From contig PFEF01000003.1 in the NCBI GenBank assembly GCA_002793915.1, positions 18,854 through 82,853 on the forward strand: 64,000 bases of DNA, given 5' to 3'. The translations under genes and the position numbers were made by a program. How positions within the stretch are numbered: the stretch's first letter is position 1; each line of letters opens with the position of its first letter. Of this stretch, positions 5,766 to 27,296 are shown piece by piece. The stretch comes from Candidatus Ryanbacteria bacterium CG10_big_fil_rev_8_21_14_0_10_43_42. GTDB lineage: Bacteria > Patescibacteriota > Minisyncoccia > Ryanbacterales > 2-02-FULL-48-12. The notes below the pieces were generated by a model. It did not search any database. It saw nothing but the letters and a program-made list of their open reading frames with translations, and was not told the DNA's origin.

Positions 5766-7307
5766 TTAGCGGCGATGCTTAGGCGTAACCCAAAAACCAA
5801 GCCGCCATCGTCCCCCCAGCATGAGGCGCGTTTGGGCCTCGAGCCCCGGAATGGCGCCAAAAACAATGATGGTAAACGGCATAAGCACCCATTGAAAAAC
5901 CATACTAAAACTCCTCCACTTGCCATAGTGTTTCGGACGCGGCGGCAGAAGAGATGTTGAAATAACGGCAGATGTGATAAGCCCCACCATAGCAAATCGC
6001 ATAAGCGTCTGTGTAATAACCGGCAAATTATAAGAAAGAAGCGTTGTATTAAACTCTTTCCCTCCCAGATAAATGGGAAGCCATCCCAAGGCAAAAATAA
6101 TAAGTGCATTGGTCGCCCATGACCAAAACCCCTCCAGCAAGACACCGGTAAAATATATTTTTTGTCTAATGGGAATATTTTTGTTCCGTACAAAATTAAA
6201 AAATACATATGGCATATTTTCGACTCCCCATCCCCACCTGCGTTGTTGCTTGTATACATTTTTTACCGTTTCCCAAAATGTAGGGGCAACATTTGCATCC
6301 AATGATATTGGATATGAAAGCGGTATTGTACGGTAGTCTCCGTTATACGGAAAAAAATGATTCCAAAAAATACGCGAATCTTCCGATACAATGTTTTTCT
6401 GCCAATAGCCGACATCCACAAGTCCGCTTAAACTCATAGAATGAGAAGAAAATGTTGTAAGCCGTTCCGGACGCTCCTGTTGCATCATTTGCCAAAACGT
6501 ACCCGATGACGCAACCACGCGGGAAAGCATGGGGGCATCCCATATATTATTGTTATATACCGGCACCGGCTGAAATGATGAGCGATACGGTTTTTCTACT
6601 GTAAGAAAGTGATATGCTACACAAGAAAAATAATGCGGATACACGCGGGAATCGATATCAAATGCAGAAACAATTACATTTTTATGCGGAATATTTTTCG
6701 GATCAATATAGTTCTCTACAATTTCTTTGGCGGCATATGTTCCGTTTGATCCCTTTCCCGCAAGCTCACCCTCTGTGTCCATAGGATGCAATGTTGTAAA
6801 AAACATACCGAACTTATCACCATACTCTTCGACAATAACACGCTCTGTTTCAGCGGCCTCCTCTCCGGCGCGCTCCTCCCGAGCGAGAACAATAATCATA
6901 CGATCTTTCGGCCAGGGCGTTGCTAAAATGGCATCTAAAGATCCTCGCACAACGGAAGCATCTTCTTTATAAAACGGCAGTATAACCAGTTGTTGTAAAT
7001 GCTCCCACCGCATATTAGCAAGTTTTGAATGCCAATCGATTTCCATATGTTTTTTAAGACGCTTGGCGCTAATACGCATATGCACCGATAAAAATACGGT
7101 CTTTATAAGCCAGTACAAATCGAATGTAATGATAAACACAGCCGCCCACACGGGCGCCCGCCACGAAAGAAGGAAAAGTCCTATAAGCGTAGTCCACGCA
7201 AGCGCTCCCGGAACAATCTCAAAAAAACGATAAAGACGACGATCGCTTCCCGTTAAGTCATTTGCTTTTGAAATATTGTAATATGTATTCACGCAGGAAT
7301 TGTACAT
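5766..7307 (-). CDS. processive family-2 glycosyltransferase (polysaccharide synthase-like, QxxRW motif), integral membrane
   Basis: 513 aa. N- and C-terminal transmembrane helices, D-x-D (SAFDIDS) and KQQRRWGWG (QxxRW) as in cellulose/chitin/hyaluronan-synthase-type GT2 enzymes. Confidence 0.7.
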   Translation of the reverse strand: MYNSCVNTYYNISKANDLTGSDRRLYRFFEIVPGALAWTTLIGLFLLSWRAPVWAAVFIITFDLYWLIKTVFLSVHMRISAKRLKKHMEIDWHSKLANMRWEHLQQLVILPFYKEDASVVRGSLDAILATPWPKDRMIIVLAREERAGEEAAETERVIVEEYGDKFGMFFTTLHPMDTEGELAGKGSNGTYAAKEIVENYIDPKNIPHKNVIVSAFDIDSRVYPHYFSCVAYHFLTVEKPYRSSFQPVPVYNNNIWDAPMLSRVVASSGTFWQMMQQERPERLTTFSSHSMSLSGLVDVGYWQKNIVSEDSRIFWNHFFPYNGDYRTIPLSYPISLDANVAPTFWETVKNVYKQQRRWGWGVENMPYVFFNFVRNKNIPIRQKIYFTGVLLEGFWSWATNALIIFALGWLPIYLGGKEFNTTLLSYNLPVITQTLMRFAMVGLITSAVISTSLLPPRPKHYGKWRSFSMVFQWVLMPFTIIVFGAIPGLEAQTRLMLGGRWRLGFWVTPKHRR

Positions 7308-7364
7308 AAGATAAAGAGAAATGCAAATAAAAACCGGCTTATCTTTTGGATAAGCCGGGATACC

Positions 7365-9305
7365 TTAATCTTTCCATAAATTATTTGCCGCATACTTCAG
7401 CACCACATCCACGCAATACTCACAGTAACCACCGTCAAGCATGCTACGCACCATGGTCCCGTACTTATCTGTTTGCTCTTCATCCCGGGTGCGAGCTTTG
7501 GTGATGATGCGGCTAATGTCCCGCACCGAAGCCATGAGCTTTTTTTCTATGGCTTCTTTGAGGGGCTCATAACTCTGGTATGAGATACTCTCACCCCGCC
7601 TGCCACACGCCCACAAATAGGCAATCACTTCTTGGCGGAAGCCGTCGGCGGCGGATCCGATAATCGCAATCTGTTCTTCCACCGATTTAAGAAATGCCTC
7701 ATCCGGCTGAAGCTCTTCACGAGTGTTGGCATCTCTGACTTTAGTTTTATTCACATGCGCCTCGGCGTGGTCCAGATAATTCTGAAACAACGTCTCTGCC
7801 TGTTCTTGATATGAATAAACAAACGCTTTGGTAATCTCTTTCTCCACGAGCTCCAGATACTCCTTATGCAAGGTATCCTGGAGAAACTCGAGATACATCT
7901 TACGTATGTCGTCAGCCATGTCTTGATCCTTGACCATACTAATCATGGCTTCCCGCACGTTAATCGGGTTAATGCATTTACCGGATTCGGCAAGCGCATT
8001 ATCAAGCGCTTTCATGATAAAGCGGGTTGAGATACCGAAAAGACCCTCGCGTTTGGCCTCATCGTGCAACTCTTGGATATTGATCTTCTTTGTCCGTCCT
8101 TTCTCGACCACTTCTTCGCCGTTATACAGCGCCAGTTTTGTCATTAGATCACACTTTGGAGTCGGTTCGAGTCGGGATAAGACGGCAAACATCGACGCCA
8201 TCTCTAGTGTGTGAGGCGCTACGTGAGCATCAAAAGACGATTTCTGCAAGATCTTCTGATAAATCTTGACCTCTTCAGACATCCGCAGATTATACGGAAC
8301 TTTGACGACCACAATACGGTCAAGAATCGCTTCGTTGGTGTGATCGGCTTTGAACTTTTGCCACTCGGCCTCGTTTGAGTGGGCAACAATAACCGAGTCT
8401 ATATACACCGTGCCGTGCCGTCCGGGCGCAGGGACGAACTTCTCTTGAGTTGCCGTAATCATGGCATGCAGGTATTCTGTTTCATTCTTAAATACCTCAA
8501 TAAATTCAACCATGCCACGGTTGCCCACATTAAACGCCCCGTTCAGTTCTAGCACGCGAGGATCACCTTCGGAGTACATATCGAGCTTAGAGATATCCTC
8601 TGATCCGATCAATACGGACGTATCTTGGTTGTTCGGATCAACCGGCGGAACAACACCAATGCCACGCCGGTTACGTTTAGAAAATTCCACCTGGACGATG
8701 GGAAACTCTTCATAGCGTGCGCCAAATTCGTCCTTAAGCCGATGCCGGCAAATGGGACACAAATCTCCTTCGATATGGACATCAAGCATCTTCTCGAATT
8801 CCTTGCGCAGATGACGCGGAACAAGATGCAATGGCTCTTCGAACATTGGACAGCCTTCAATGGCATAGACCGACTCGGCTTCTTCCAGACCCCTCTGCAA
8901 TTTTTCAACCAGCGAGCTTTTGCCCGATCCAACCGGTCCCATCAGGTACAACACCTGGCGACTTTCCTCTCCCTTTAATGAAGCTGAATGAAAATAACGA
9001 ACAATCCGTGCCGCCGTTCGTTCAATACCAAAAAATTCATCTTTGAAAAAGTTGTAAACCTTGAGGGGTTCATCTTTGTACAAGCGCCCCACTCGTGGAT
9101 CATCGGATTCGGTGATCTCCGACATACCCTGGGCAATCATCATATTGTACAGACGACTGTGCGCAAGTCGGGTTATGCCCGGATTCTTTCGGACTTCTTC
9201 AAGGTAATCGATCAACGTTCCCTGCCATTCTACCCTTTGATGACTCGCCCTGTCCTTGGTAATCATAGTCTCGAACTGTTCCCGTGATGCCTGTTGCTGT
9301 GCCAT
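7365..9305 (-). CDS. prkA: PrkA-family serine protein kinase (AAA+ N-domain)
   Basis: 646 aa. P-loop LMGPVGSGKSSLVEKL and a typical PrkA N-terminus (GTLIDYLEEVRKNPGITRLAHSRLYNMM). GGAGGA SD 4 nt upstream of the ATG. Confidence 0.85.
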   Translation of the reverse strand: MAQQQASREQFETMITKDRASHQRVEWQGTLIDYLEEVRKNPGITRLAHSRLYNMMIAQGMSEITESDDPRVGRLYKDEPLKVYNFFKDEFFGIERTAARIVRYFHSASLKGEESRQVLYLMGPVGSGKSSLVEKLQRGLEEAESVYAIEGCPMFEEPLHLVPRHLRKEFEKMLDVHIEGDLCPICRHRLKDEFGARYEEFPIVQVEFSKRNRRGIGVVPPVDPNNQDTSVLIGSEDISKLDMYSEGDPRVLELNGAFNVGNRGMVEFIEVFKNETEYLHAMITATQEKFVPAPGRHGTVYIDSVIVAHSNEAEWQKFKADHTNEAILDRIVVVKVPYNLRMSEEVKIYQKILQKSSFDAHVAPHTLEMASMFAVLSRLEPTPKCDLMTKLALYNGEEVVEKGRTKKINIQELHDEAKREGLFGISTRFIMKALDNALAESGKCINPINVREAMISMVKDQDMADDIRKMYLEFLQDTLHKEYLELVEKEITKAFVYSYQEQAETLFQNYLDHAEAHVNKTKVRDANTREELQPDEAFLKSVEEQIAIIGSAADGFRQEVIAYLWACGRRGESISYQSYEPLKEAIEKKLMASVRDISRIITKARTRDEEQTDKYGTMVRSMLDGGYCEYCVDVVLKYAANNLWKD

Positions 9306-9565: not shown

Positions 9566-11440
9566 TTATACCGCCTGCGCCGGCGAAATACCCATAATTT
9601 TATTAAACATATCGCGTTCGATAGTTTCGTGTTCCAGCAAATATTCAGCAATTTCGGCAAGTTTTCCTTTCTTTTCTTTGAGTATTGTTTGCGCCTTTAC
9701 AAGAGCTTCTTTCATAAAACGCGATACTTCCGTATCCACCTGTGAAGCAACTTCCTCCGAATATTTTTTCTCATGCCCAATGTCGCGTCCGAGAAATACC
9801 ATGTCGCTTTGATCATCCCAGGCAACCGGACCTATTTTTTCAGACATACCGTACCGTGTTACCAAACTGCGCGCTATAGAAGTTGCCTTGCGGATATCGT
9901 CGGATGATCCGGTAGTAAGCTCGCCAAATATAAACTCTTCAGCCGCATACCCTCCAAGAGAAACCGCCAATTCGTCCAAGAAGTGATCTTTTGAGTAGTA
10001 ATGTTTGTCTTCCGTTGGTAATTTCATAGTATATCCGCCGGCACGCCCACGAGATATAATGGAAATTTTATGCACGGGATCCGTATTGGGAAGCGACGCC
10101 GCCACCAGCGCGTGCCCCGCTTCGTGATATGCCGTAATTTTTTTCTCTTTGTCTGAAAATACCTTACTTTTACGCTCCGGTCCGAGAAGTACTTTTTCTA
10201 TAGATGTAAGAACGTCCATTTGATTCACCTCCTTTCTGTTTTCACGCGCCGCCGCTATAGCCGCTTCATTTACAAGATTTGCCAAATCGGCTCCGGAAAA
10301 TCCGGGCGTACGCTCCGCAATACGACGCAAATCAATATCGCCCGCCATATGCTTTTTTATCACGTGCACCGCTAAAATAGCTTCTCTGTCTTTAATATCG
10401 GGCAAATCAAGAACAACCCTTCTATCAAACCGTCCCGGGCGAAGAAGCGCCGGATCAAGCACGTCCGGACGGTTCGTTGCCGCCATTACAATTACTTGGT
10501 CTGATGTTTCAAATCCATCCATTTCGGTAAGGATCTGGTTAAGCGTTTGTTCACGCTCATCATGTCCGCCACCGAGACCTGCACCACGATGACGCCCCAC
10601 CGCATCAATTTCGTCTACGAATATAATAGAGGGAGCGGTCTTCTTCGCGGTACGAAACAAATCCCGTACACGACTTGCGCCCACACCCACAAACATTTCA
10701 ACAAATTCGGAAGCCGACATATGAAAAAACGGCACGCCAGCCTCTCCCGCAACCGCTTTTGCAAGCAGTGTTTTTCCCGTACCGGGACTTCCCATAAGAA
10801 GTACTCCGCGCGGAATGCGAGCACCGATATCCAAAAATTTCTTCGGATTTTTAAGAAAATCCACAATTTCTTCAAGTTCCTCCTTTGCTTCTGCGGATCC
10901 GGCAACATCCTTGAATGTAACACGATCTCCTTTTTTATCCTGCGGATTAATAACGCGTGCCCGCGACTGGCCAAACATCATAGCCTGTCCATTCGAACGC
11001 TGAACCTGCCGCATGGTAAGCCAGATAAATAAACCGATAAGCAAAATAGGAAGGAGAAACGGCAGAACGGTCGCCGCCCAAAACGCAAGTCCCGACGGCT
11101 CCTTTACTTCGATTGTTATGCTTTCCAAAAGCGCCGGACTGACGCCATAATTTACGAGCGTTTCCGTAAGAGCCGCGTCTGATTCTTTCTTTGTCGTCTG
11201 CACAACCTCATTAACAAGAGTTATTTCAAGCTTATCTTGCTGTACGGTTATACGCTCCACGTCACCAGCCTTGATTTCCGTTACCAGACGGGACAGCGTA
11301 ATTTCCTCCGGCTCCTCGTTGGTTACAAATGAAGCATAGACCGCCGTTAGAATGAAAAAAATTAAAACGGCGTAAAGGATATTCTTTCCGAATAACGTAA
11401 CCGGATTTTTCATTATGGGCTTTTTAATGGGATTTTTCAT
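9566..11440 (-). CDS. ftsH: ATP-dependent zinc metalloprotease FtsH
   Basis: N-terminal transmembrane helices, AAA Walker A GPPGTGKT, second region of homology, HEAGHA zinc motif. 624 aa. Confidence 0.95.
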
Positions 11441-11534
11441 GAATTATGTTATGTGAATTAATCAATAGAAACATACAGATAAAACGTCTCTGTTATACTC
11501 CAGGGTACAATTATTGTACCACAATGGCAAGGAT

Positions 11535-13040
11535 TTATCGTAATTCTTTTTCTATATCGATCTCCGCCATTTCCGCCAAATCTGATTTTTGAGGCTGATT
11601 TTTTCGAAGCGCCGAAGATAATTTGGCAAGTATAATTCCTACCTCCGGGACAACTCCCATTGACGATGTGGCGATTCCCTTTCGAAATACAAGTTTAAAG
11701 ATACGCGGTACCCCTTGAGCAATGCTACTGCCGAAACGCGGCACGGAATCTACAATAAGAAACTCGCCATCATTTTTTATATCTTCCATGAATATACCCG
11801 CCCGGATATATGTAAGTTCGCTTGTTTCATGATTATATCTGTAAATTCCCGTTTGCAGAGGAAGCGTCATTTTCTGTATACCATGCGGCACAAGAGCGAT
11901 ATGCGATAGTGGCAAACGTTGCTTTATCGCCGCATTTACTTTTTCAAAATCGAATTGAACATCAATGCCAAGGTGCGCCGCTATATGGAAAAACTCCATG
12001 GGCGGTACTCCCTGCATCATCAACATTTGCGAGTGCATAGGAAATGCTCCGGTAAAGCGCGGATTACATTCTATAGGATACAGGTCATGTGTTTCTTTGT
12101 TGTAAATAAAATCAATACCAAAAACTCCCTTGTATCCCTTACGTGATAGGTATAATCCTATTTCCTCTACAATATGCTGTGCCGTTTTTACCGTTTCATC
12201 CGGCCATGAATGAAAAATCCAATCATTACCAAGAAATGTTCCCGTTGCCGCACTCCCGTGTAATGATTCCGGTACATCTATTAACTGCAACTGCAAGGTA
12301 GACGTAAGAACGCCGCGCGCCGTAACGCATCCAAGCATGGAAGGCGCAAAACCTTCTATAAAAGGAGAGATGAGAATCTCATTGAAACGATTATCACCGG
12401 AAAGAATATCTCGGCACATATGCCAATCATCCTTCGTATGCAAAAAGAATGTTCCCAAATTACCACTCACTTCAAGATCCGCTCGCTGAACCACCACCGA
12501 TGTTTGCCACTTACCATGCAAATCATCATATGATAACTTCAAAAACTCTTCGCGGGACATGCGCCATTCCGGCATAGTAGGAAGTTTTAGCTGTTTTATA
12601 AGATCACGAAACTCCCCTTTAAGCTGTGTTCCCTCATAGTTTTTTGGCGTATTACCTATCCAATCAATACCAAGCTTATCAAGCGTTTCCGCAGTTCGCC
12701 TAGTTGCTAAATTAATCATGAGCCGGTAGGGTTTTTTCCACGATTTGAGAAATCCTTGAAATATATAATTATTCACCAGATAACCAAGGGCATGTACTTT
12801 AGCGGCAATCCGCGGATGATGTTCTTCCAGACAAAAAATCTTTGCATGTTTCCGCAACATGTCCAAATCGACACTGTCTTTGACGCAATAAATAGCGTAG
12901 TTATCGAGAAAAAGCGCCGGTATAATACGATTATACGGCTCTATCCCTACAGCTATAATTGTTTTTTCCTGCATGTTCTTCAGTACATCTCCCAGATTAT
13001 GAATATACTTTTGCCATGCCAAGAAGCGTGTCTTGTCCAT
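11535..13040 (-). CDS. ATP-grasp domain protein (carboxylate-amine/thiol ligase superfamily), substrate unknown
   Basis: C-terminal half contains FGIDFIYNKETHDLYPIECNPRFTG, the E-x-N-x-R catalytic loop typical of ATP-grasp enzymes, preceded by a Rossmann-like pre-ATP-grasp N-domain. No SD. Confidence 0.65.
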   Translation of the reverse strand: MDKTRFLAWQKYIHNLGDVLKNMQEKTIIAVGIEPYNRIIPALFLDNYAIYCVKDSVDLDMLRKHAKIFCLEEHHPRIAAKVHALGYLVNNYIFQGFLKSWKKPYRLMINLATRRTAETLDKLGIDWIGNTPKNYEGTQLKGEFRDLIKQLKLPTMPEWRMSREEFLKLSYDDLHGKWQTSVVVQRADLEVSGNLGTFFLHTKDDWHMCRDILSGDNRFNEILISPFIEGFAPSMLGCVTARGVLTSTLQLQLIDVPESLHGSAATGTFLGNDWIFHSWPDETVKTAQHIVEEIGLYLSRKGYKGVFGIDFIYNKETHDLYPIECNPRFTGAFPMHSQMLMMQGVPPMEFFHIAAHLGIDVQFDFEKVNAAIKQRLPLSHIALVPHGIQKMTLPLQTGIYRYNHETSELTYIRAGIFMEDIKNDGEFLIVDSVPRFGSSIAQGVPRIFKLVFRKGIATSSMGVVPEVGIILAKLSSALRKNQPQKSDLAEMAEIDIEKELR

Positions 13041-13159
13041 AAAAATATACTACTCACATTATGTCATGCTTATATATAAACTTAAACATCACATCATGTG
13101 ATTATACACTGATCCAAATATGATAGTGGGGCAGAATGCGATTGCATCTGCCCCAGAGT

Positions 13160-14056
13160 TTATGCAGCAACTATTTCCACCACGGAAGCGACTGAATGAA
13201 TTTTTTCAATTGGCGGGAGTTGCCCCTTCACCGGGGCGTCAGAAACAAGAAAATGAACTGCCGTCATTGACTCAAGGACCGGGAGGTCGCCATGTTCCTC
13301 CTCCACCGCCTTCCGGTGAACAAAGTAGGATTGTTGATCCTCAATATCCCACACGCGGCCGGTGCCGGTAACACCGTTAAAATACATAACCACCCCGCGG
13401 TGCCATTGATCGCTTTTCGGATTTGGCACCTCCGGCGGATTCCAAGCTACAGCGGGCACCTTATGTTTTTGCATAACTTTCTCGATGCTTTCCGCGGCAT
13501 ATCTGGTAACCAGATCGCCAACTTGGTCCCATATGCCGGAGAACGAAGCTCCCGGATAGGCGTTAGACGCTTCTAACGCCACCACGTCATACCCGCCGCG
13601 CTTTTTAACGGCTTGACCAAGGAAAATCTTCTCAACGTATTGAAAAAACTTTCCCCTCCAAGTGACAATTGACCATTCTTCCTGGACAAACGATCCATCC
13701 TTGTAGATCGTTAGAAGATCTACATTATCTTTCCCTGTTTCCCGAGTATGTGGAATGTCTACACCGCGATATCCTTGACTCCATCGGACCGGCACTGCCA
13801 TGGTAAAGGACGTCTGTCCCGTTACCTTTTTTGGTTCTCCTTCCTTTCGAGCATTAAACCAAAAGCGTTCTACTACGGGTTCATCCTCTTCACGCCCGCT
13901 GGTATCCACCGTAAAGATGATTTTATCTGGCGTTCTCCCGGTGAGCATAATCTTTCGCCACATCGCTTCACCGCTTGATGTGGAATAAGCATTCCGGGTT
14001 CCGGCAAAATCGCTAACCGTCATGGTCACTCCATGGAAATTAATCGAAGAATTCAT
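13160..14056 (-). CDS. hypothetical protein with C-terminal cold-shock (CSD/OB-fold) domain
   Basis: The C-terminal ~70 aa (GVVMYFNGVTGTGRVWDIEDQQSYFVHRKAV) match the CspA pattern G.V.WFN..KGFGFI....VFVH with RNP1/RNP2-like motifs. The N-terminal ~220 aa are unassigned. The start is set at MNSSI (14056) because AAGGAGAG lies 4 nt upstream; the ORF-track start 14074 falls within that SD. Confidence 0.6.
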   Translation of the reverse strand: MNSSINFHGVTMTVSDFAGTRNAYSTSSGEAMWRKIMLTGRTPDKIIFTVDTSGREEDEPVVERFWFNARKEGEPKKVTGQTSFTMAVPVRWSQGYRGVDIPHTRETGKDNVDLLTIYKDGSFVQEEWSIVTWRGKFFQYVEKIFLGQAVKKRGGYDVVALEASNAYPGASFSGIWDQVGDLVTRYAAESIEKVMQKHKVPAVAWNPPEVPNPKSDQWHRGVVMYFNGVTGTGRVWDIEDQQSYFVHRKAVEEEHGDLPVLESMTAVHFLVSDAPVKGQLPPIEKIHSVASVVEIVAA

Positions 14057-14236
14057 ATTCTCTCCTTTTGTCAAAGTTTTTTATTCTGGTAAGAATTTAT
14101 CATACTTTATTACTTTTGTCAATAGAATTCGTCTGTTTCATTCATAAAAACTCTTATTTTTTGGGCATTTTTCAAACTTTATAATGATATTCTCGATAGT
14201 TATGTATATGAACAAAAAAAGCCCGATTAAGGGACT

Positions 14237-14806
14237 TTAGGCGGCAATTTGATACCGATTTTTTATATAATATTTTTTTAATTCGGAAAAAAGGCGCATT
14301 GCCTCCTTCTCCTGCGGCTCCTTTTTTTGGGGCGCGAAAAGCAAAATGCCTCTGTCTCCATATTTTTCAAGAGCTATTGAAATTCCCTCCCGTGAACTCT
14401 TAACATCCACATTAAACCGAAACCCTCCTTCCGCATCGGACGCAAGACCAAAAAAATCAATACCGCGTCTGTCCGGCGCACTTTGTTTTAATGTTTCTTC
14501 AACCCATGCGATAAATCCGTGAGCTTGCAGATATCGAAATAATTCTGCCACATAATCCTGGGACGCCTTTCCTCTTTTCTCTCCCTGAACCTCTTTACAA
14601 AGCGCGACCACCCGCTCCCATTCCCGTTTCCCTTTACACCTCCTGTATATCTTAGGGCCATTGTAATCCTTAACATCATTCGCCTTTATACCCGGGGAAC
14701 TCATGGGCTGTATGGTCATACAAATACTACCTGCGCGTGATGGCGGTACATACACGCATACAGTAGTGCAGATAGTACTCCGCATACTTTCTTCCTGATA
14801 GCACAT
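14237..14806 (-). CDS. hypothetical protein (no recognisable domain)
   Basis: 189-aa ORF. The first ATG is preceded by a perfect AAAGGAGGA SD (4-nt spacing). Basic central region. Confidence 0.55.
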   Translation of the reverse strand: MCYQEESMRSTICTTVCVYVPPSRAGSICMTIQPMSSPGIKANDVKDYNGPKIYRRCKGKREWERVVALCKEVQGEKRGKASQDYVAELFRYLQAHGFIAWVEETLKQSAPDRRGIDFFGLASDAEGGFRFNVDVKSSREGISIALEKYGDRGILLFAPQKKEPQEKEAMRLFSELKKYYIKNRYQIAA

Positions 14807-14933: not shown

Positions 14934-17900
14934 ATGGAGAAAAAGAGAAAATCGTTCATAGATGGACGGGACGCCCTTAATATACTTAGGGAAGCGTTTA
15001 CGTCCCGTGATAAAAAAACACCACCCTTTTCGGGACATATTGCGGAACTTCAAAAATCACTGCACGGCCCCGAAGCGCATACCGTAGCTATTGATACCGA
15101 GAAAAGCAGTGATACCCTTAACGAAACTCCGCCTTTAACAACCAATCTGGGAGATGTATTTAAAAGGGCAAAACAAAAAGCCGAAAGCAATGCCTCATCT
15201 TCCACGGAAACAAATCCTTCGTTGAAAAACGGAGAATTACCGCCCGAAAAAACACCGGGAGAAAACGCCACCCTGCATAATGCCGCGGCCAGAATATTAC
15301 GCGGGGAAACGCCGCTTCCCCATGAACAAGAGGTTCTTGAAAATGAGCTCGAGAAAGCCGGTATTAATGAGGAAGTCAAGACGGAAAAAGAACTCTCTCC
15401 TGAAAAAAATAGCCCCGGTATCTCTGATAAGGAACGTAATGAATATGTGGACAGATTATTGACTCGCATGAGAAATGGCACCGGAAAGGGGTACGGACAA
15501 GGTCAGGGCGCAGGGCCGGGATATGAAGAAACGTGGTTGCGAGGATGGATGGCGGAACAAATGGCGGAACATGCTAATAGTCCTTCCATACAGGAAGAAA
15601 TACGCGCTATTGGTGAGCGCGCTCTTGCGTTGGAGAAAGAGAAAAAAAACGCTGACGATGCCCCCAAAATGCCCCCCGCTCCCATCCCGGAAACGGATTC
15701 CAAAGAGGTGGTAACATTAGCGGATCATTCTCCAGATACCGAAGAAGACAAAAAAGAAACGGGGAACAATCTTCCCGAAACCATCCTTATAACACCGGAA
15801 AACATTCCCGTACCCGAAGAAAATGCTCTTGCGATCGTACAGGATACTCATCCTAAGTCTGATGCGGTGTCCGAGCAAGTTGATACGCCAATGGAAGAAC
15901 ACCCTCCGGTAAAGGAAGGTCTTAAAAAAACGGAACAAGTTGCATTATTTATCCAAAAATATGATGCATTATTGGAAGCACTGGAGACAAAACGCCCTAC
16001 CGCCGAGGAACAACTTGAACGTCTTGCTCGTGGCATTGCCCAAAGGACGCAATTTAATGTTAGGGAAATTGAACAACGTTTGGCTGATGCGGAAGATGAC
16101 GGAGACAAGGTAATGTACGAAAAAGCAATTGAACTCATTAAGGAAGAAATCACCCCAGACGAAGAATCCTTCGCCCAAGAACATGTAAACGCATCAGAAA
16201 AAAAGGAAGAAGATATACCGGAAAACATTCCCGTACCCGAAGAAAATGCTCTTGCGAGCATAGCGAAAAAAACGGAACATCCTCCGGAACAGCAAGAAGA
16301 ATACTCTCCGATAAAGAAAGAAGACCTACCGGAAAAACCATTACGTGAAGAGAAAGAGGAGGAAGAGAAGGAGAAGGAGGAAGAGAAAATAGCCCGACTT
16401 GGTGTGGCATGGAAAGCCCTTAATGAACAAGTAGAGGAAGAGCGGAAAAAGCAGGAAGACGCGGAAAAGAAACGGAGAACAGATACCACAAAACGGGAGC
16501 AACCACTGGATCCAAATGATCTCCCCTCTGAAAAAAAAGAGCAAACGGATACTCCTAATACCGAAAACATCACGGCACACCGTGAGCAACCGATGTCTCA
16601 CATAACTCCGCGCGTTGAACAAGTGTTTAAAACATCGGGTATTCCGCTTGAACATATTAGGGAGATTCCCGGATATGAAAAGCTCTCCGAGGGACAACTT
16701 ATTCTTCTCTGCCGCAACATACAAGAGATGACTGTTGGTTTTGTGCATCGAGAAGCACATACGCAATTCGAACAGGACGCAAATACATCAGATGCCACGA
16801 AGTGGCTATCGGAAAAAATGGAAAGTTTTATTGACACAAAAGCAAAAAAATATCCGTGGATGGAACAACTTTACAAAGGCCTTGCCATTGGAAGCACGTT
16901 TACACATTTCCTTGGCAACGCATGGCACCGTGCTACGGAAGATGTTCAGCTTGAAAAGCGCCGTGAACATGCCCTTATGAACAAAGAGCTTTTCTTTAAT
17001 GATCCAACTACGAAAAATCATATACGCATACTTGCGGACCGCCTACAGGAAGGACCTGACGTTATTATTCACGGAAAAAATATCGAACTTCATTATTTAT
17101 CAGAAAATATAATGGATCCCTATTGGGAAAAACTTCCCGCTCATGACCGCATTAAGGCAAAAGCCATTCTCACTTCATTTAATAAATCCGTATGGAAATT
17201 CCAAGAAACTCCTTTCGCCAAAGATAAAGAACATAAAAAAGAAAAAGCATTTGTAAAAAACCGCGATAAACTTCTTGCCGTTATCAATAACCCCGATTTT
17301 TCAGCCTACATGACACGCATTGAAGGAGTGGCACGTGAACAAAAATTTCTGCGTAGTAACGAAGACGCCGCTAAGTACCTTGCTTGCGTGGAAGATAAAT
17401 CGGCATTGTGGGCGGCCTACGGAAAGATGGCATTGGAAAGAGGTACGAGCGTCGTACTGGGGCGGACCGTACGGGCCGGCATTAACGGTTTAACCGGTTT
17501 TATTGCATATCCGCTAGCAGGCGCCGCCGGAGCTGCTGTTGCGGGAGTCGGCGTTCATGGTCTTTTGCGCAGGGGACGCGTTCGTCGGGAGGAAACCATT
17601 AAACGCGAACAGGGCGTAACAAATGCACTTCGCCCATATATGAACGCTAGTAATCTTAGTCGTCGTTTCGAAACGCTCCTTTCCCGAACGGAAACAACGA
17701 CGGATAAAAAGAGTCGTGAAAGAAATCTTCTCTTCCTTGAACGACTCGTACACGCCACGGAAGGACGCGCCGAAGAAGGTCTTATTACCTATGGAGAAAA
17801 AGAGAAAGCCGGATCAGTGGAAGTAAACCGTTATGAACTTGGTATGCATATTGCAAAAGCACGCGTTTTACTTGCCCAAGAACATCTTGATAAAGAAAAA

Positions 17901-19169
17901 TCATCCCTGTATCAAAAACGTATTAATGCCCTTTCTAAGGGCTGGGAAAAGAAATTAAAGAAAAAGGAACATGATGCTATTGTAGACCGCGTTAAATATG
18001 CGGCCATGTACAATGCTGTGTTTTCCGTGGCAGGCGCCGCACTAAGCGATACATACGAAACATTTGTTAAGTTAAACGGAAATATAGTGGACACACCCGA
18101 ACTTGCCGCGCCTCGCGCGCCTGCTTCACCACGTTTTTCTTCAACGAACAGTGATATGTCGCCCGAAGAACTCATAACAAAACCCCCTCCTCTGCCTGCG
18201 AATACTTCCCCCGATGATAGTTATCGATATAATCCGGAAGGAAAACGTGATCCATTTTCTGTTCCGGAGACGGTACATAAAGCAATGACCGAAATTCCGG
18301 CAACGGAAGAAGATGCGCGCGAAATAGTCCAAAAAACGCATATGTCGGTCGTTCGTGAGGGGGAAAATGTCTGGCGCGCCACCCGCCGCTTTATTGAAAG
18401 CGATACCCTTACAAATAAGGAATGGGCGGAAGCATGGGGTAATTCTCCCGATATTCATGATAAAGATCTTGTTTATGCCGGAACTGCTGTTGAATATGAT
18501 GCGGGAGAAAAGAAATTTATTGTTTCTCGACATTTGGCGGAAAAAGAACCGACCTCATATGCCGCCCTGGGAGAAAAACCCCCTACCCCATCAGAAACAT
18601 CATCTCATGAAGCGGTGATTGCCGCCCAAAAAGAAGGAGCCGCTATTCTGAAAAGCCCCATCGAAGAAAGCAGTGTGTCATTCAAAGATGCCATTACGCA
18701 TCCGAAAAAATTTGCTGATACATTTAGGGGAGAAAATTTATACGTTCAGGACGCTGTTATTGGTAATATTCAACGCCGTGTAAGCGACTTACGCAGTCTT
18801 GGTGAAAGTCTTTACCAAGAGGAGATCTCCCAGGGAGATGATTTAATGAGCAAACTCCTTTCGAATGCGTCCTACCAAGAAAACCAGAAGCAATGGCTTC
18901 GCCTTCAGTCAATATGGGAGAAAGATCTTACTCTTAAAAAAGAGGCCTTCCACGCATTAATGGAATGGCGGGTTGAGGATTTTCGCTCCATGAAACATGC
19001 TCTCACGGAAGGGCGCACGGAAGGCGGCGCAATCGGCAAAATACTTTATAATCAAATAATGAAAACGGGAGACGGCATACTTAAACTACTGGAAGGCATT
19101 GATAAGCGTATTCCGCGCAACATCCCCGAAGGCACTACCCTTAGTGATGCACTTCGGCGCACCGTTTAG
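14934..19169 (+). CDS. giant acidic hypothetical protein (1411 aa) with one central hydrophobic segment
   Basis: Single uninterrupted ORF. N-terminal third is E/K/P-rich low complexity (EKEEEEKEKEEEK) with an internal repeat PENIPVPEENALA x2. Putative transmembrane segment GFIAYPLAGAAGAAVAGVGVHGLL. No catalytic motif recognised. Confidence 0.7.
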   Translation: MEKKRKSFIDGRDALNILREAFTSRDKKTPPFSGHIAELQKSLHGPEAHTVAIDTEKSSDTLNETPPLTTNLGDVFKRAKQKAESNASSSTETNPSLKNGELPPEKTPGENATLHNAAARILRGETPLPHEQEVLENELEKAGINEEVKTEKELSPEKNSPGISDKERNEYVDRLLTRMRNGTGKGYGQGQGAGPGYEETWLRGWMAEQMAEHANSPSIQEEIRAIGERALALEKEKKNADDAPKMPPAPIPETDSKEVVTLADHSPDTEEDKKETGNNLPETILITPENIPVPEENALAIVQDTHPKSDAVSEQVDTPMEEHPPVKEGLKKTEQVALFIQKYDALLEALETKRPTAEEQLERLARGIAQRTQFNVREIEQRLADAEDDGDKVMYEKAIELIKEEITPDEESFAQEHVNASEKKEEDIPENIPVPEENALASIAKKTEHPPEQQEEYSPIKKEDLPEKPLREEKEEEEKEKEEEKIARLGVAWKALNEQVEEERKKQEDAEKKRRTDTTKREQPLDPNDLPSEKKEQTDTPNTENITAHREQPMSHITPRVEQVFKTSGIPLEHIREIPGYEKLSEGQLILLCRNIQEMTVGFVHREAHTQFEQDANTSDATKWLSEKMESFIDTKAKKYPWMEQLYKGLAIGSTFTHFLGNAWHRATEDVQLEKRREHALMNKELFFNDPTTKNHIRILADRLQEGPDVIIHGKNIELHYLSENIMDPYWEKLPAHDRIKAKAILTSFNKSVWKFQETPFAKDKEHKKEKAFVKNRDKLLAVINNPDFSAYMTRIEGVAREQKFLRSNEDAAKYLACVEDKSALWAAYGKMALERGTSVVLGRTVRAGINGLTGFIAYPLAGAAGAAVAGVGVHGLLRRGRVRREETIKREQGVTNALRPYMNASNLSRRFETLLSRTETTTDKKSRERNLLFLERLVHATEGRAEEGLITYGEKEKAGSVEVNRYELGMHIAKARVLLAQEHLDKEKSSLYQKRINALSKGWEKKLKKKEHDAIVDRVKYAAMYNAVFSVAGAALSDTYETFVKLNGNIVDTPELAAPRAPASPRFSSTNSDMSPEELITKPPPLPANTSPDDSYRYNPEGKRDPFSVPETVHKAMTEIPATEEDAREIVQKTHMSVVREGENVWRATRRFIESDTLTNKEWAEAWGNSPDIHDKDLVYAGTAVEYDAGEKKFIVSRHLAEKEPTSYAALGEKPPTPSETSSHEAVIAAQKEGAAILKSPIEESSVSFKDAITHPKKFADTFRGENLYVQDAVIGNIQRRVSDLRSLGESLYQEEISQGDDLMSKLLSNASYQENQKQWLRLQSIWEKDLTLKKEAFHALMEWRVEDFRSMKHALTEGRTEGGAIGKILYNQIMKTGDGILKLLEGIDKRIPRNIPEGTTLSDALRRTV
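15795..16257 (+). repeat. 40-bp perfect direct repeat inside the giant gene (15795-15834 and 16218-16257)
   Basis: CCGGAAAACATTCCCGTACCCGAAGAAAATGCTCTTGCGA occurs twice, 423 bp apart (in frame), encoding the duplicated peptide PENIPVPEENALA. Confidence 0.8.
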
Positions 19170-20315: not shown

Positions 20316-22382
20316 ATGAGTAAAAAGTTAATCATCGTAGAATCACCCACAAAAGCCCGCACCATCTCCCGCTTTCTCGGAAAAAAATATTCCGTAGAAT
20401 CCAGTATGGGGCATATTCGTGATCTACCGGCATCACAGCTCGGTATTGATGTTGATAATGATTTTGAACCACACTATGTTATCTCGCGAAAAGTACAGCC
20501 TCAAGTAAAAAAACTGCGGGAACTCGCAAAAAAAGCGGATACCATTATACTTGCAACTGATGAAGATCGTGAAGGAGAAGCTATAGCGTGGCATCTTACT
20601 TATGCTCTTAAACTGCATGAGGAAAAAAATGCCGAAAAACATGTCGAGCGTATTGTATTCCATGAGATAACCAAACATGCCATCGAAGAAGCTCTTGAAC
20701 ATCCGCGCTCAATCAATACCCATCTGGTAAATGCCCAACAGGCCCGGCGCATTCTCGACAGAATCGTCGGTTATAAACTTTCTCCCTTTTTGTGGAAAAA
20801 AATTGCCAAGGGACTTTCCGCCGGACGTGTGCAGTCCGTTGCTGTTCGTCTTATAGTTGAGCGTGAAAAAGAAATTTCCGAATTTAAGCCGGAAGAATAT
20901 TGGACAATCACCGCGCACTTCGCCGGAAAACAACCCTTTACCGCGCGCCTCTACAAAGCGAATGGGGTTATTGTCCCCCAACGCGGTATTACGACAAAAA
21001 AGGAATCGGACGTTATTTTGAAAAATCTCGAGCAAGCGGCATACACCATTACATCCATCGAAAAAAAGGCGAGTATGCGAAATCCCCGTCCGCCCTTTAC
21101 CACAAGTACCCTCCAACAGGCCGCCTCAAGCCGTTTTGGGTTTTCAGCAAAACAAACCATGCGCCTTGCTCAACAATTATACGAAGGTATTGTTATAGAC
21201 GCTAAAGGTGCCGTAGGTCTTATAACCTATATGCGTACGGACTCGCTCAATCTTTCAGAAGAGGCCCTTTCACACGCTAAAACATTTCTTACCGAATCAT
21301 TCGGTGAGAAATATGCTCTTCCGGAACCCCGCCGCTTTAAAACAAAATCAAAGGGAGCGCAGGAAGCTCATGAAGCAATTCATCCCACCGACATCACACG
21401 TACACCGGAATCGATAAAAGACAAACTTGAACCGCGTCAATATAAATTATACGAACTCATCTGGCAAAGATTTTTAGCAACTCAAATGCCGCCGGCACTA
21501 TTTGATGCCACAACCATTGATATAAATGCCGACGACTATACATTCCGCGCCACCGGATCCGTTCTTATATTTGATGGATTTCTTGCCGTATATCCCATGA
21601 AAACGGAAGATACGCTTCTGCCGGTTCTGAAAGAACATGACGTTCTTTCTCTTGAGAAACTTGCCTCCGAACAGCATTTCACCGAACCTCCTCCGCGATA
21701 TTCGGAAGCATCACTCATTAAGGCTCTGGAACAAAACGGCATCGGACGGCCATCCACCTACGCACCCACCATAAGCACTATCCAGGATCGCGGCTATGTG
21801 GAACGTAATGAAGCAAAACGCCTCCAGCCTACGGAAATGGGTGGTATGGTAAATAATGTTCTTGTAGAACATTTTCCAAATATTGTTGATATTGCATTTA
21901 CAGCGGATATGGAAAACAAGCTAGACGATGTCGCAGAAGGAAATACTGAATGGGTAGCCCTTATCCGTGACTTCTATCTCCCCTTTGCGAAACGTCTTGA
22001 GGAAAAATATGAATCAGTCGAGAAAAAAACAATGGATGAAGAGACGGATGAACTATGCGAAAAATGCGCCAAGCCTATGATTATAAAACATGGACGGTTT
22101 GGGCGGTTTATGGCATGTTCCGGCTTTCCTGACTGCCGTAATACAAAACAACTTCCCCAACATACGCTCGGCATTACTTGTCCCGTATGTAAAAAAGGTG
22201 ATATTATTCCTCGCCGCACAAAGAGCAAACGCATGTTCTACGGATGCTCCGAATATCCGGCATGTGATTTTGCTTCCTGGGATAAACCAACCCCCCAAAA
22301 CTGCTCCGTTTGCGGGTCACTCATGGTAGAGAAAGGCAAAAAAATTATATGTTCGGACAAAGAATGTCGTACTCGAGACTAA
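20316..22382 (+). CDS. topA: DNA topoisomerase I
   Basis: TOPRIM N-terminus (LIIVESPTKARTI), active-site Tyr region (GLITYMRTDS), C-terminal Cys4 zinc ribbons (CEKCAKPM...CSGFPDC, CPVCKKG...CSEYPACDF). 688 aa. Confidence 0.95.
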   Translation: MSKKLIIVESPTKARTISRFLGKKYSVESSMGHIRDLPASQLGIDVDNDFEPHYVISRKVQPQVKKLRELAKKADTIILATDEDREGEAIAWHLTYALKLHEEKNAEKHVERIVFHEITKHAIEEALEHPRSINTHLVNAQQARRILDRIVGYKLSPFLWKKIAKGLSAGRVQSVAVRLIVEREKEISEFKPEEYWTITAHFAGKQPFTARLYKANGVIVPQRGITTKKESDVILKNLEQAAYTITSIEKKASMRNPRPPFTTSTLQQAASSRFGFSAKQTMRLAQQLYEGIVIDAKGAVGLITYMRTDSLNLSEEALSHAKTFLTESFGEKYALPEPRRFKTKSKGAQEAHEAIHPTDITRTPESIKDKLEPRQYKLYELIWQRFLATQMPPALFDATTIDINADDYTFRATGSVLIFDGFLAVYPMKTEDTLLPVLKEHDVLSLEKLASEQHFTEPPPRYSEASLIKALEQNGIGRPSTYAPTISTIQDRGYVERNEAKRLQPTEMGGMVNNVLVEHFPNIVDIAFTADMENKLDDVAEGNTEWVALIRDFYLPFAKRLEEKYESVEKKTMDEETDELCEKCAKPMIIKHGRFGRFMACSGFPDCRNTKQLPQHTLGITCPVCKKGDIIPRRTKSKRMFYGCSEYPACDFASWDKPTPQNCSVCGSLMVEKGKKIICSDKECRTRD

Positions 22383-26429: not shown

Positions 26430-27296
26430 CTAGAGAGTAGATATCCTACTGTCTTGTAAAAATGGTGTAATATCTTCTGCTGGGATTTCGCGACCAATTG
26501 AAACTTCGGGTGTATATATTACGCCATGCCAGTCGCTTCCACCGGTGATATAGAGCCCCAATTTCCTGCCGAGATTTCTTAATGTGATGACTTCGTCTTC
26601 GGAATGTTTTGGGTAATAGACCTCTAATCCTAAAAGTCCCTCCTTTGCGAGGTTGGCTAATATTTCCTCATATGCTACATGTCCAAGCTTTCGTAACTCT
26701 CTCCCAGAATGAGCCAAGACAGGGATGCCACCTGCGCTGGCGATAAGCTGAAAACTTTCTTTTGGCGTCATCATCCACGTATCATCTTCCTGTTCTATAA
26801 AAACATACTTCCTCAAAACATCTTTAACGGTGATATTTCCTTTAAGATGTTGCGCTACTATTCTCGCGATAGTGTTTCTGCTCACATAGGCTTCATGTCC
26901 GGCGAGTCTGAGCGATTGAAAATCCATTCTCAGGTCTGGAAGTAATTTGTTAATTTTATCAATTATTGCGATTGCCCGACGATTATAGCCATCAATCGTT
27001 CGCTGCAGATTCTTATTCAATATTTCTCGATTGAGTTGTCTGCCATACCCAAGGATATGCAAAGAGAAGTTACTTCCAGACATACGATACAATGTAGAAA
27101 TTTCTACACCATCGATATACTGAATTTGGTTCTTTTCCGCATACGTTTTTATACTTGCGGTGTCTGGAAGGAAATTGTGATCAGTAATTGAAAAGATGGA
27201 GGTTTTCTTGTTTCTTGCCTTATCTATGATTTCTTCCGGCGATAACTCACCGTCGGAAAAATATGAATGTGTGTGCAAATCTAAATACATATACAA
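26430..27296 (-). CDS. PHP-domain phosphoesterase (TrpH/YciV-like)
   Basis: N-terminal LDLHTHSYFSDGELSPEEIIDKA matches the PHP metal-binding motif of TrpH/YciV. Further His/Asp ligands (ITDHN, HILGYG, LAHSG, GGSDWHG). 288 aa. Confidence 0.75.
   Translation of the reverse strand: MYMYLDLHTHSYFSDGELSPEEIIDKARNKKTSIFSITDHNFLPDTASIKTYAEKNQIQYIDGVEISTLYRMSGSNFSLHILGYGRQLNREILNKNLQRTIDGYNRRAIAIIDKINKLLPDLRMDFQSLRLAGHEAYVSRNTIARIVAQHLKGNITVKDVLRKYVFIEQEDDTWMMTPKESFQLIASAGGIPVLAHSGRELRKLGHVAYEEILANLAKEGLLGLEVYYPKHSEDEVITLRNLGRKLGLYITGGSDWHGVIYTPEVSIGREIPAEDITPFLQDSRISTL

Follow-up and report, generated by a model that had tools for sequence, protein, structure and literature searches.

A 64,000-nucleotide stretch of a metagenome-assembled genome of Candidatus Ryanbacteria, a lineage of the candidate phyla radiation (CPR, or Patescibacteria), is called the window below. 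On its minus strand lie a gene for an ATP-grasp ligase and, directly upstream, a gene for a protein with a cold-shock domain (CSD), which we call the partner. Judged from gene order and sequence, the two are an uncharacterised, functionally linked pair that is conserved across Parcubacteria-type CPR bacteria, and the many homologues of each indicate that both are real genes. The ligase is 100% identical to hypothetical protein COU90_00485, and full-text searches of the literature found no description of the pair. Our leading hypothesis is that the ligase has the partner as its substrate or target, or is regulated by it. The pair consists of:

11535–13040, minus strand: ATP-grasp ligase (gene 1), 501 amino acids (aa)
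13160–14056, minus strand: partner protein, of the family designated c3 (gene 2), 298 aa from the ATG at 14056, the likeliest start, rather than the TTG at 14074

We clustered the open reading frames (ORFs) of 80 genomic loci encoding relatives of the ligase, and then searched these loci in all six frames with a hidden Markov model (HMM), since longer shadow ORFs on the opposite strand hid the partner in some of them. The partner lies upstream of the ligase, on the same strand, in 25 of the 28 close-orthologue loci for which upstream DNA is available; the genes are immediately adjacent in 23 of these and separated by a hydrolase gene in the other two. The ligases of the anchored loci are 41–57% identical. 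The pair is flanked by FtsH in Ryan- and Wildermuthbacteria-type loci and by DnaJ and DnaK elsewhere, while in Nomurabacteria- and Paceibacterota-type loci an aminoacyl-tRNA synthetase (aaRS) and MreB lie upstream of it and RseP and ribosome recycling factor (RRF) downstream. Because the flanking genes differ between lineages, the pair persists through rearrangement. A reverse test, anchored on the partner, found the ligase directly downstream in four of six informative loci and absent from two. One locus of this test (L089:4001–7403) has the order aaRS, partner, X, RseP, RRF in common with two ligase-encoding loci, L015 and L022, both of which also have MreB upstream; X is the ligase in L015 and L022, and a class-I aaRS on the opposite strand in L089, which makes these loci a clean contrast of presence and absence. 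Dependence within the pair is asymmetric: the ligase almost never occurs without the partner, and the partner sometimes occurs without the ligase. The initial annotation, made from the sequence of the window alone, had grouped the two genes with a third, upstream gene; co-localisation in relatives holds for genes 1 and 2, in both directions of the test, and fails for gene 3.

The partner belongs to a much larger family than a rapid search suggests. A word-indexed search returned a single relative, 33% identical, whereas a full HMMER scan of 1.84 billion representatives yielded 146 family representatives of 250–405 aa at an expectation value (E) below 1e-3. We had considered the partner a near-orphan, and rejected this view after the clustering of loci, the six-frame HMM search and the full HMMER search. 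The case carries a lesson of method: the word-indexed search made a near-orphan of a protein for which neighbourhood clustering and full HMMER searching recover at least 146 representatives. The family evolves fast, with identities of 20–33% as against 41–61% for the ligases encoded beside its members, and has no stretch conserved enough for pattern design. An AlphaFold2 (AF2) model of the partner is confident (predicted local distance difference test score, pLDDT, 89.3; predicted template-modelling score 0.88) and gives the following layout, to which the alignments add one loop:

aa 1–160, minus strand: beta-rich N-domain, followed by a helix at aa 172–194 and the CSD at aa 219–288 (AF2)
13718–13747, minus strand: N-domain loop T104-R-E-T-G-K-D110-N-V-D113, consensus P-[HS]-T-R-x4-D-N-x-D, nearly invariant in alignments
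13193–13402, minus strand: CSD of the partner, aa 219–288 (Foldseek and Pfam)

Foldseek searches found no credible structural neighbour of the N-domain in the PDB or BFVD, and no Pfam model covers it; the predicted structure thus presents it as a new beta-domain. Its most conserved feature is the P-[HS]-T-R-x4-D-N-x-D loop. Elsewhere in the family, conservation extends to alignment position 127, a Gln that is replaced by Glu in the window copy, to an A-Y-P-G motif and to two Trp residues. Searches of Pfam, NCBIfam, PADLOC and PHROGs with the window copy gave no hit (at E < 0.1 for PADLOC and PHROGs). That gene 2 encodes a CSD fusion, as proposed initially, is confirmed by structure: residues 219–288 superpose on E. 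coli CspA (1mjc) with a template-modelling (TM) score of 0.87 and a root-mean-square deviation of 1.9 Å, and the Pfam CSD model (PF00313) matches 40 of 89 family members (best E 6.8e-8), with the window copy itself falling short of the E = 0.1 threshold. We assigned the RNP motifs by comparison with CspA. On this basis RNP2 reads F-V-H-F in the family consensus, as in the CspA family, and F-V-H-R in the window copy; an aromatic residue before F-N is kept, and the RNP1 aromatics are variable (G-T-G-R-V in the window copy). Unlike CspA, the partner carries its CSD behind a domain of about 200 aa with no known counterpart and does not conserve the RNP1 aromatics, and binding of nucleic acid is putative. 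The partner is probably a cytoplasmic protein. Asp plus Glu make up 6.6% of its last 10 residues and 11% of its full length. Family members most often end in ...VKS[VIC]K[PA]A, a semi-conserved V-[KR]-S-[VIC]-K-[PA]-A, with a terminal Ala in 33 of 89; the window copy ends in ...SVVEIVAA.

The conserved loop tends to go with the ligase. The pattern T/S-R...D-N-x-D is kept in 28 of 29 partners that are linked to a ligase, whereas both partners without a ligase have lost T104, R105, D110 and N111 and read T-V...S-D-x-D and V-S...E-D-x-Q. A hypergeometric count by hand gives p of about 0.007, with phylogeny ignored and only two unlinked lineages. About 20 lower-scoring representatives of the partner family also lack the motif. 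We regard this coupling as a lead, seen in alignments, rather than a result. The sole ligase-linked partner without the motif is that of a Wildermuthbacteria locus (L041), in which two ligase paralogues of 52% identity (7534–9003 and 9974–11482) flank the partner gene. The upstream copy reads E-C-M-P-Q in place of E-C-N-P-R, so that the catalytic N and R are replaced, and has lost its Gly-rich strand; it is probably a pseudo-enzyme.

The initial annotation described gene 1 as a three-domain ATP-grasp ligase with an E-C-N-P-R loop, and Pfam, loop conservation and the AF2 model all agree with this. The ligase scores 31.9 bits against Pfam ATP-grasp_3 (cutoff 23.2) and has at least 182 homologues at 43–61% identity. 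It has the E324-C-N-P-R328 loop, which 74 homologues conserve. In these sequences F307, G308, E324, C325 and P327 never vary, and conservation of D310, N326 and R328 is at least 90%. We take D310, E324 and N326 to be Mg ligands and R328 to be the catalytic Arg; because these residues are conserved, the ligase should be active, its Mg-binding and catalytic residues appearing intact. The strand that carries the canonical ATP-binding Lys ('hhhK') reads V-V-Q185-R186-A-D in the window, with R186 on the position of that Lys in a profile alignment with the D-alanine–D-alanine ligase (Ddl) 3tqt, and ligases of the Doudnabacteria type have Pro there. K141, which is invariant in the family, may compensate. 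The AF2 model (pLDDT 93.6) has the classical three domains and an extra C-terminal beta-subdomain. The tail (residues 487–501; window 11535–11579) is disordered and acidic. Ligases of the Ryan/Wildermuth-type subgroup have such a tail, which often finishes in -EEL, -EEF, -QEF or -NEF (homologues P0002–P0066), and it is missing from other subgroups. These endings are reminiscent of SSB or tubulin tails; that the tail docks on a basic face of the CSD is pure speculation.

The ligase belongs to an uncharacterised PRK06524-like clade that is conserved in Parcubacteria-type CPR bacteria. Foldseek matched the model to PurK, biotin carboxylase, PurT and an L-amino-acid ligase (3vot) with TM scores of about 0.5 at 10–14% identity (probability 1.0 and E down to 3e-17 for the first three). 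All of the top 50 matches in structure belonged to these types, and none was a RimK or MdnC chain. When the PDB was searched by sequence, with the single sequence and with a profile, nothing came out below E = 0.03, and the best match to a carboxylase had E = 0.26. The best-scoring family is NCBIfam NF005096 (PRK06524), named 'biotin carboxylase', which is uncharacterised, of similar length (about 493 aa) and closest by sequence, and for whose name we found no functional backing. Over residues 65–427 the window ligase scores 89.5 bits against a cutoff of 684; NF005096 is also the top family for all distant homologues tested, several of which it matches almost end to end, with scores of 76–179 bits overall. 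From these scores the ligase is a distant sister clade of PRK06524, not a member. We rejected its identification as a biotin carboxylase, the score being far under the cutoff; its loop reads E-C-N-P-R-F-T-G, as against what we take to be E-M-N-T-R-x-Q-V-E-H in biotin carboxylase. Grouping with a housekeeping ligase such as Ddl or RimK had been named, together with a lack of co-localisation in relatives, as an outcome that would refute the initial proposal, and no significant match to either was found: Pfam RimK and Dala_Dala_lig gave no hit at E < 0.1, an archaeal Ddl model gave E = 0.033, and the family profile matched a PDB Ddl with E = 0.03 over 98 residues only. Family and structure searches likewise led us to reject a graspetide ligase or macrocyclase and any known defence protein, along with Ddl and RimK themselves. 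Weak hits to carboxylate-amine ligases (LdmS for the window ligase; BesA, MfnD, PylC and archaeal Ddl-like models for distant homologues) are local, with E from 1e-3 to 1e-7, far under family cutoffs. LdmS, BesA, MfnD, PylC and L-amino-acid ligases of the BL00235 type have carboxylate-amine ATP-grasp chemistry in common with the window ligase; unlike it, L-amino-acid and gamma-glutamyl ligases have no dedicated protein partner.

Distant ligase homologues, at 24–31% identity, occur in Microgenomates, Saccharibacteria and other CPR bacteria (L033, L046–L048, L050, L053–L059, L061–L063, L065 and L067). They are preceded by genes for a 7TM_transglut membrane protein and an ATPgrasp_ST/Zn_protease (PF05618) protein, often follow YebC-RuvC and often lie near PBP1A; three (L046, L050 and L053) have a C-terminal extension of about 290 aa with no Pfam hit. 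A distant homologue in Desulfobacterales (L031, L032, L038, L040, L043, L045, L049 and L060) follows one or two genes for OppD/F-type ATP-binding cassette ATPases, with further conserved genes upstream. In L028–L032 and L060 the distant homologue is followed by an ATP-grasp protein of the L-amino-acid-ligase type (ATP-grasp_4 plus LAL_C2). The Desulfobacterales arrangement resembles an operon for the handling of peptides that includes two ligases.

In 24 of 32 close loci the pair adjoins a gene for an amide-bond hydrolase, which is of one of three unrelated types. A GGACT/ChaC-like gamma-glutamyl cyclotransferase is found at seven loci, those closest to the window; an alpha/beta-hydrolase of S9/S33 type at 16, on either strand and either side; and a C26 peptidase at one. 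GGACT and alpha/beta-hydrolase genes never occur together in one locus, and their positions and orientations vary. Neither the window locus nor a second Ryanbacteria locus (L008) has a hydrolase neighbour, and no homologue of the GGACT protein or the alpha/beta-hydrolase is encoded anywhere in the 64-kb window; we read this as loss of the hydrolase from the window locus. Two of the three types, GGACT and C26, are specialised for gamma-glutamyl amide bonds, and hence we propose a glutamyl or gamma-glutamyl product for the ligase.

Transcription signals around the pair indicate two units. The features of the region, together with the Shine–Dalgarno (SD) sequence of gene 2, are:

14094–14122, minus strand: gene 2 promoter of sigma-70 type, TTGACA-17-TAAATT, extended by TG (matching at 10 of 12 positions, with no better candidate in the region)
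14062–14067, minus strand: gene 2 SD AAGGAG, 5 nt before the ATG at 14056
13126–13156, minus strand: GC-rich hairpin, CTGGGGCAGA / loop of 11 / TCTGCCCCAC and a T-rich tail, 3 nt past the gene 2 stop
13101–13106, minus strand: TATAAT, candidate -10 box for the ligase transcript
13058–13063, minus strand: CATAAT, candidate -10 box for the ligase transcript, 17 nt before the ATG; no SD

The hairpin is likely an intrinsic terminator or attenuator between genes 2 and 1. A hairpin with a T-tract separates partner and ligase in 21 of 23 orthologous intergenic regions, as against 17% of shuffled sequences, and the remaining two regions (L002 and L006) also have hairpins by eye. Because a predicted intrinsic terminator thus nearly always stands between them, partner and ligase would be transcribed separately. 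Nor do the three genes make up one operon: terminator-like hairpins end genes 3 and 2, and gene 2 has a strong promoter of its own. The partner is probably a separate monocistronic unit, strongly expressed, and the ligase would be expressed separately, on weaker signals that include no SD, or by read-through: a -10-like box, by a strict pattern, lies 12–18 nt before the ligase ATG in 9 of 23 orthologous loci. By eye, an SD is rare at orthologous ligase genes and present at about half of the partner genes. A strong gene followed by that of its enzyme is the typical layout for an abundant substrate or structural gene, as in pilins and the precursors of peptides that are made on ribosomes and modified after translation (RiPPs), and the order of partner and ligase may be read in this way.

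We tentatively favour a reading, to which we give a little less than even weight, in which the ligase carries out ATP-dependent amide ligation, probably of gamma-glutamyl type, on or with the partner protein, and a hydrolase reverses it. The partner would be made in larger amounts than the ligase, which fits the expression signals. The ligase would activate a carboxylate as an acyl-phosphate and join it to an amine, most probably in a bond of glutamyl or gamma-glutamyl type. The acceptor might be the partner itself, in which case the conserved loop is the candidate site, or else a ligand or nucleic acid presented by the partner, and the hydrolase would reverse or recycle the product. A more specific form, which we consider improbable, makes the partner an abundant CSD protein peculiar to CPR bacteria whose T-R-x4-D-N-x-D loop is covalently modified by the ligase, with the GGACT, C26 or alpha/beta-hydrolase enzymes as erasers. 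If true, side-chain glutamylation or the addition of another amino acid would be a new kind of reversible protein modification, by which bacteria with minimal genomes control an RNA-binding protein.

RimK with ribosomal protein S6 (and RimB) and LysX with LysW each join an ATP-grasp ligase to a specific protein target that is nucleic-acid-associated or a carrier, and the Rim genes include one for a protease or eraser. By analogy RimK–S6–RimB and LysX–LysW are among the closest systems, as ATP-grasp ligases with a dedicated protein. The window ligase differs from RimK- and LysX-type ligases in the enzymes that it resembles structurally and in failing to match Pfam RimK. The targets S6, LysW and, for TTL, tubulin have a conserved acidic C-terminus, which the partner lacks; it may instead be modified on a side chain. 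In butirosin biosynthesis, the ATP-grasp enzyme BtrJ reportedly adds glutamate to a substrate tethered to BtrI, and BtrG, of GGACT fold, is said to remove the gamma-glutamyl group later. The seven GGACT loci have the same trio of component types as BtrJ, BtrI and BtrG. Unlike butirosin loci, the pair comes with no acyl carrier protein, antibiotic cluster or BtrH-type transferase, and its partner is a CSD protein. Beyond membership of the ATP-grasp superfamily, the ligase has none of the testable features that define the RimK, LysX, butirosin or PRK06524 systems. RimK is discussed, and a BtrJ-like clade named, in PMC4431377, and the role of BtrH and BtrG is mentioned in PMC8430323.

Several findings weigh against such a role of the partner in ligation. 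In fold the ligase comes closest to enzymes that act on small molecules (PurK, biotin carboxylase, PurT and L-amino-acid ligases) rather than to RimK or TTL. The alignment of the partner family holds no invariant Lys or Glu, and its C-termini are neither acidic nor conserved, unlike those of S6 or LysW. The two genes are separate transcription units, and the correlation of motif loss with ligase loss rests on two unlinked loci, with L041 as an exception. No hydrolase was found within the available flanks at the window locus and six or seven others, and the specificity of GGACT and C26 enzymes for small gamma-glutamyl amines fits a metabolite product equally. Finally, loci of the Doudnabacteria type carry an unrelated family upstream of the ligase (L081:5204–5872 and L011:9179–9880; 222–233 aa). 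The two Doudnabacteria-type proteins are 34% identical to each other and have no Pfam hit. An hhalign probability of about 1% or less led us to reject them as relatives of the partner family, and they may stand in for the partner at these loci.

Such a metabolite product is the core of a second explanation, which we hold to be rather unlikely overall: the ligase would be a small-molecule enzyme whose product, a dipeptide or else a gamma-glutamyl amine such as a glutamyl-polyamine or thiol-type compound, is degraded by the neighbouring hydrolase, and the CSD protein would be an abundant RNA-binding housekeeping protein, adjacent for regulatory or syntenic reasons. The fold and all the weak family matches (PurK, PurT, biotin carboxylase, L-amino-acid ligase, LdmS, BesA and MfnD) point to small molecules, and GGACT/ChaC and C26 (PuuD-type) enzymes normally act on small gamma-glutamyl compounds or amines. 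The position of the Desulfobacterales homologues, between Opp-type peptide-transporter ATPases and an L-amino-acid-ligase-type ATP-grasp protein, agrees with this, as do the separate transcripts and the genomes in which the partner occurs without the ligase. Against this explanation stand an adjacency that is kept in 25 of 28 loci despite reshuffled surroundings and divergence of the partner to 20–33% identity, a ligase that is almost never without the partner, and an N-domain motif that decays where the ligase is absent. A role in the cell envelope seems very improbable to us and would leave the CSD partner unexplained; here an envelope or peptidoglycan peptide ligase would extend a stem peptide or a surface polymer by an amino acid, and the hydrolase would trim it. 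MreB, MreC, PBP2, RseP, sortase or PG_binding genes do neighbour the pair at several loci, the homologues in Microgenomates and Saccharibacteria follow 7TM_transglut and ATPgrasp_ST/Zn_protease genes with PBP1A often near, and there are weak matches to an archaeal pseudomurein Ddl-like model. But envelope genes are not conserved beside close orthologues (in the window, FtsH and PrkA are the neighbours), inspection by eye showed neither an N-terminal signal nor a membrane segment in the partner or the window ligase, and signatures of Mur, Fem and Ddl are absent from the ligase, for whose family profile E = 0.03 is the best that any Ddl gave.

The initial annotation had itself looked to peptide modification, ribosomal-protein modification and phage defence, and these proposals, a three-gene graspetide (RiPP) locus, RimK-type modification of a ribosomal protein or an anti-phage module, are now largely refuted and retain scarcely any probability. 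Systems of these kinds do employ ATP-grasp ligases, and CPR bacteria have graspetide loci, with neighbours different from those of the ligase–partner pair (PMC8939145). Gene 3 is not conserved, however, and the suggested search for a Glu/Asp-rich precursor peptide within about 10 kb yielded none: between positions 1500 and 25000 of the window we found no ORF of 15–80 aa with a core of Thr/Ser/Lys plus Asp/Glu. Pfam RimK was unmatched and the structural matches held no RimK or MdnC. Phage defence fares no better, as none of the three proteins matches PADLOC or PHROGs at E < 0.1 and the locus lies amid core housekeeping genes.

CPR bacteria make up a large share of bacterial diversity, and many of the genes that they conserve have yet to be given a function. 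The analysis newly defines a module of two clearly bounded families and a variable hydrolase, and a new protein domain with a sharply defined candidate functional loop. Should the ligase modify the partner, the pair would extend ATP-grasp protein modification beyond the RimK, TTL and LysX types, with an RNA-binding protein as the target; should it produce a gamma-glutamyl metabolite, this would point to an unrecognised small-molecule pathway in organisms thought to be almost without biosynthesis.

Three consecutive minus-strand ORFs do lie between FtsH and a divergent gene for a 1411-aa protein, as first described and as seen in both the ORF listing and the sequence. In addition to genes 1 and 2, this region comprises:

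14237–14806, minus strand: gene 3, orphan, 189 aa from an SD-preceded ATG; 160 aa in the NCBI annotation, which starts at Met30
9566–11440: FtsH, with Peptidase_M41 and AAA domains (Pfam)
14934–19169, plus strand: giant gene, 1411 aa, divergent, no Pfam hit

Gene 3 does encode a basic protein, as had been noted (isoelectric point 9.2), and its standing as a gene rests on ORF length, the SD and a terminator-like hairpin at 14218–14238. Among 5.8 billion proteins it matches only itself; searches of Pfam, NCBIfam, PADLOC and PHROGs gave no match, a PDB search gave noise, and no homologue was found at more than 80 related loci. Gene 3, without homologues and missing from all related loci, therefore forms no cluster of three with the others, and the conserved unit is genes 1 and 2 alone. 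By these searches gene 3 is a lineage-specific orphan, unrelated to the conserved module. Its pattern 'RRGIDFFG...(15 aa)...NVDVK' recalls a PD-(D/E)xK nuclease motif by eye only, with no tool support.

Two perfect AAGGAGG-type SDs had been assigned to the cluster. That of gene 3, 9 nt before its ATG, is perfect, and that of gene 2 is AAGGAG(A), a match at six of seven positions. The accompanying statement that neighbouring core genes have no SD is correct for FtsH, the ATP-grasp gene and the giant gene, and incorrect for PrkA (7365–9305), which has GGAGG. An SD is present in about a quarter of the window genes, and about 30 of 45 large ORFs have none at all (for example those with starts at 20316 and 26430, and FtsH at 9566–11440). 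Several start codons, among them those of TopA (GTATAATTACACAC-ATG) and of the gene at 26430 (GTTATAATATAAAATATCAT-TTG), are preceded at 6–20 nt by a TATAAT-like box. The sequence suggests that leaderless or very-short-leader mRNAs may be widespread in this genome.

The wider neighbours in the window are housekeeping genes: RecG, PrkA, DprA, TopA, RelA/SpoT and ParAB. The giant protein, divergent from gene 3, is rich in Glu and Lys and contains the segment PENIPVPEENALA twice in its N-terminal half. On the minus strand, 5766–9305 encodes a PrkA-type AAA serine kinase (E 1e-148) and then a 513-aa protein without a Pfam hit; we had not expected a PrkA module in a reduced CPR genome. Near the start of the window, a gene for an rve-family integrase or transposase adjoins three tRNA genes (85–885 on the minus strand, 1254–1546 and 2619–2690), a group that is possibly an insertion sequence or an integration site.

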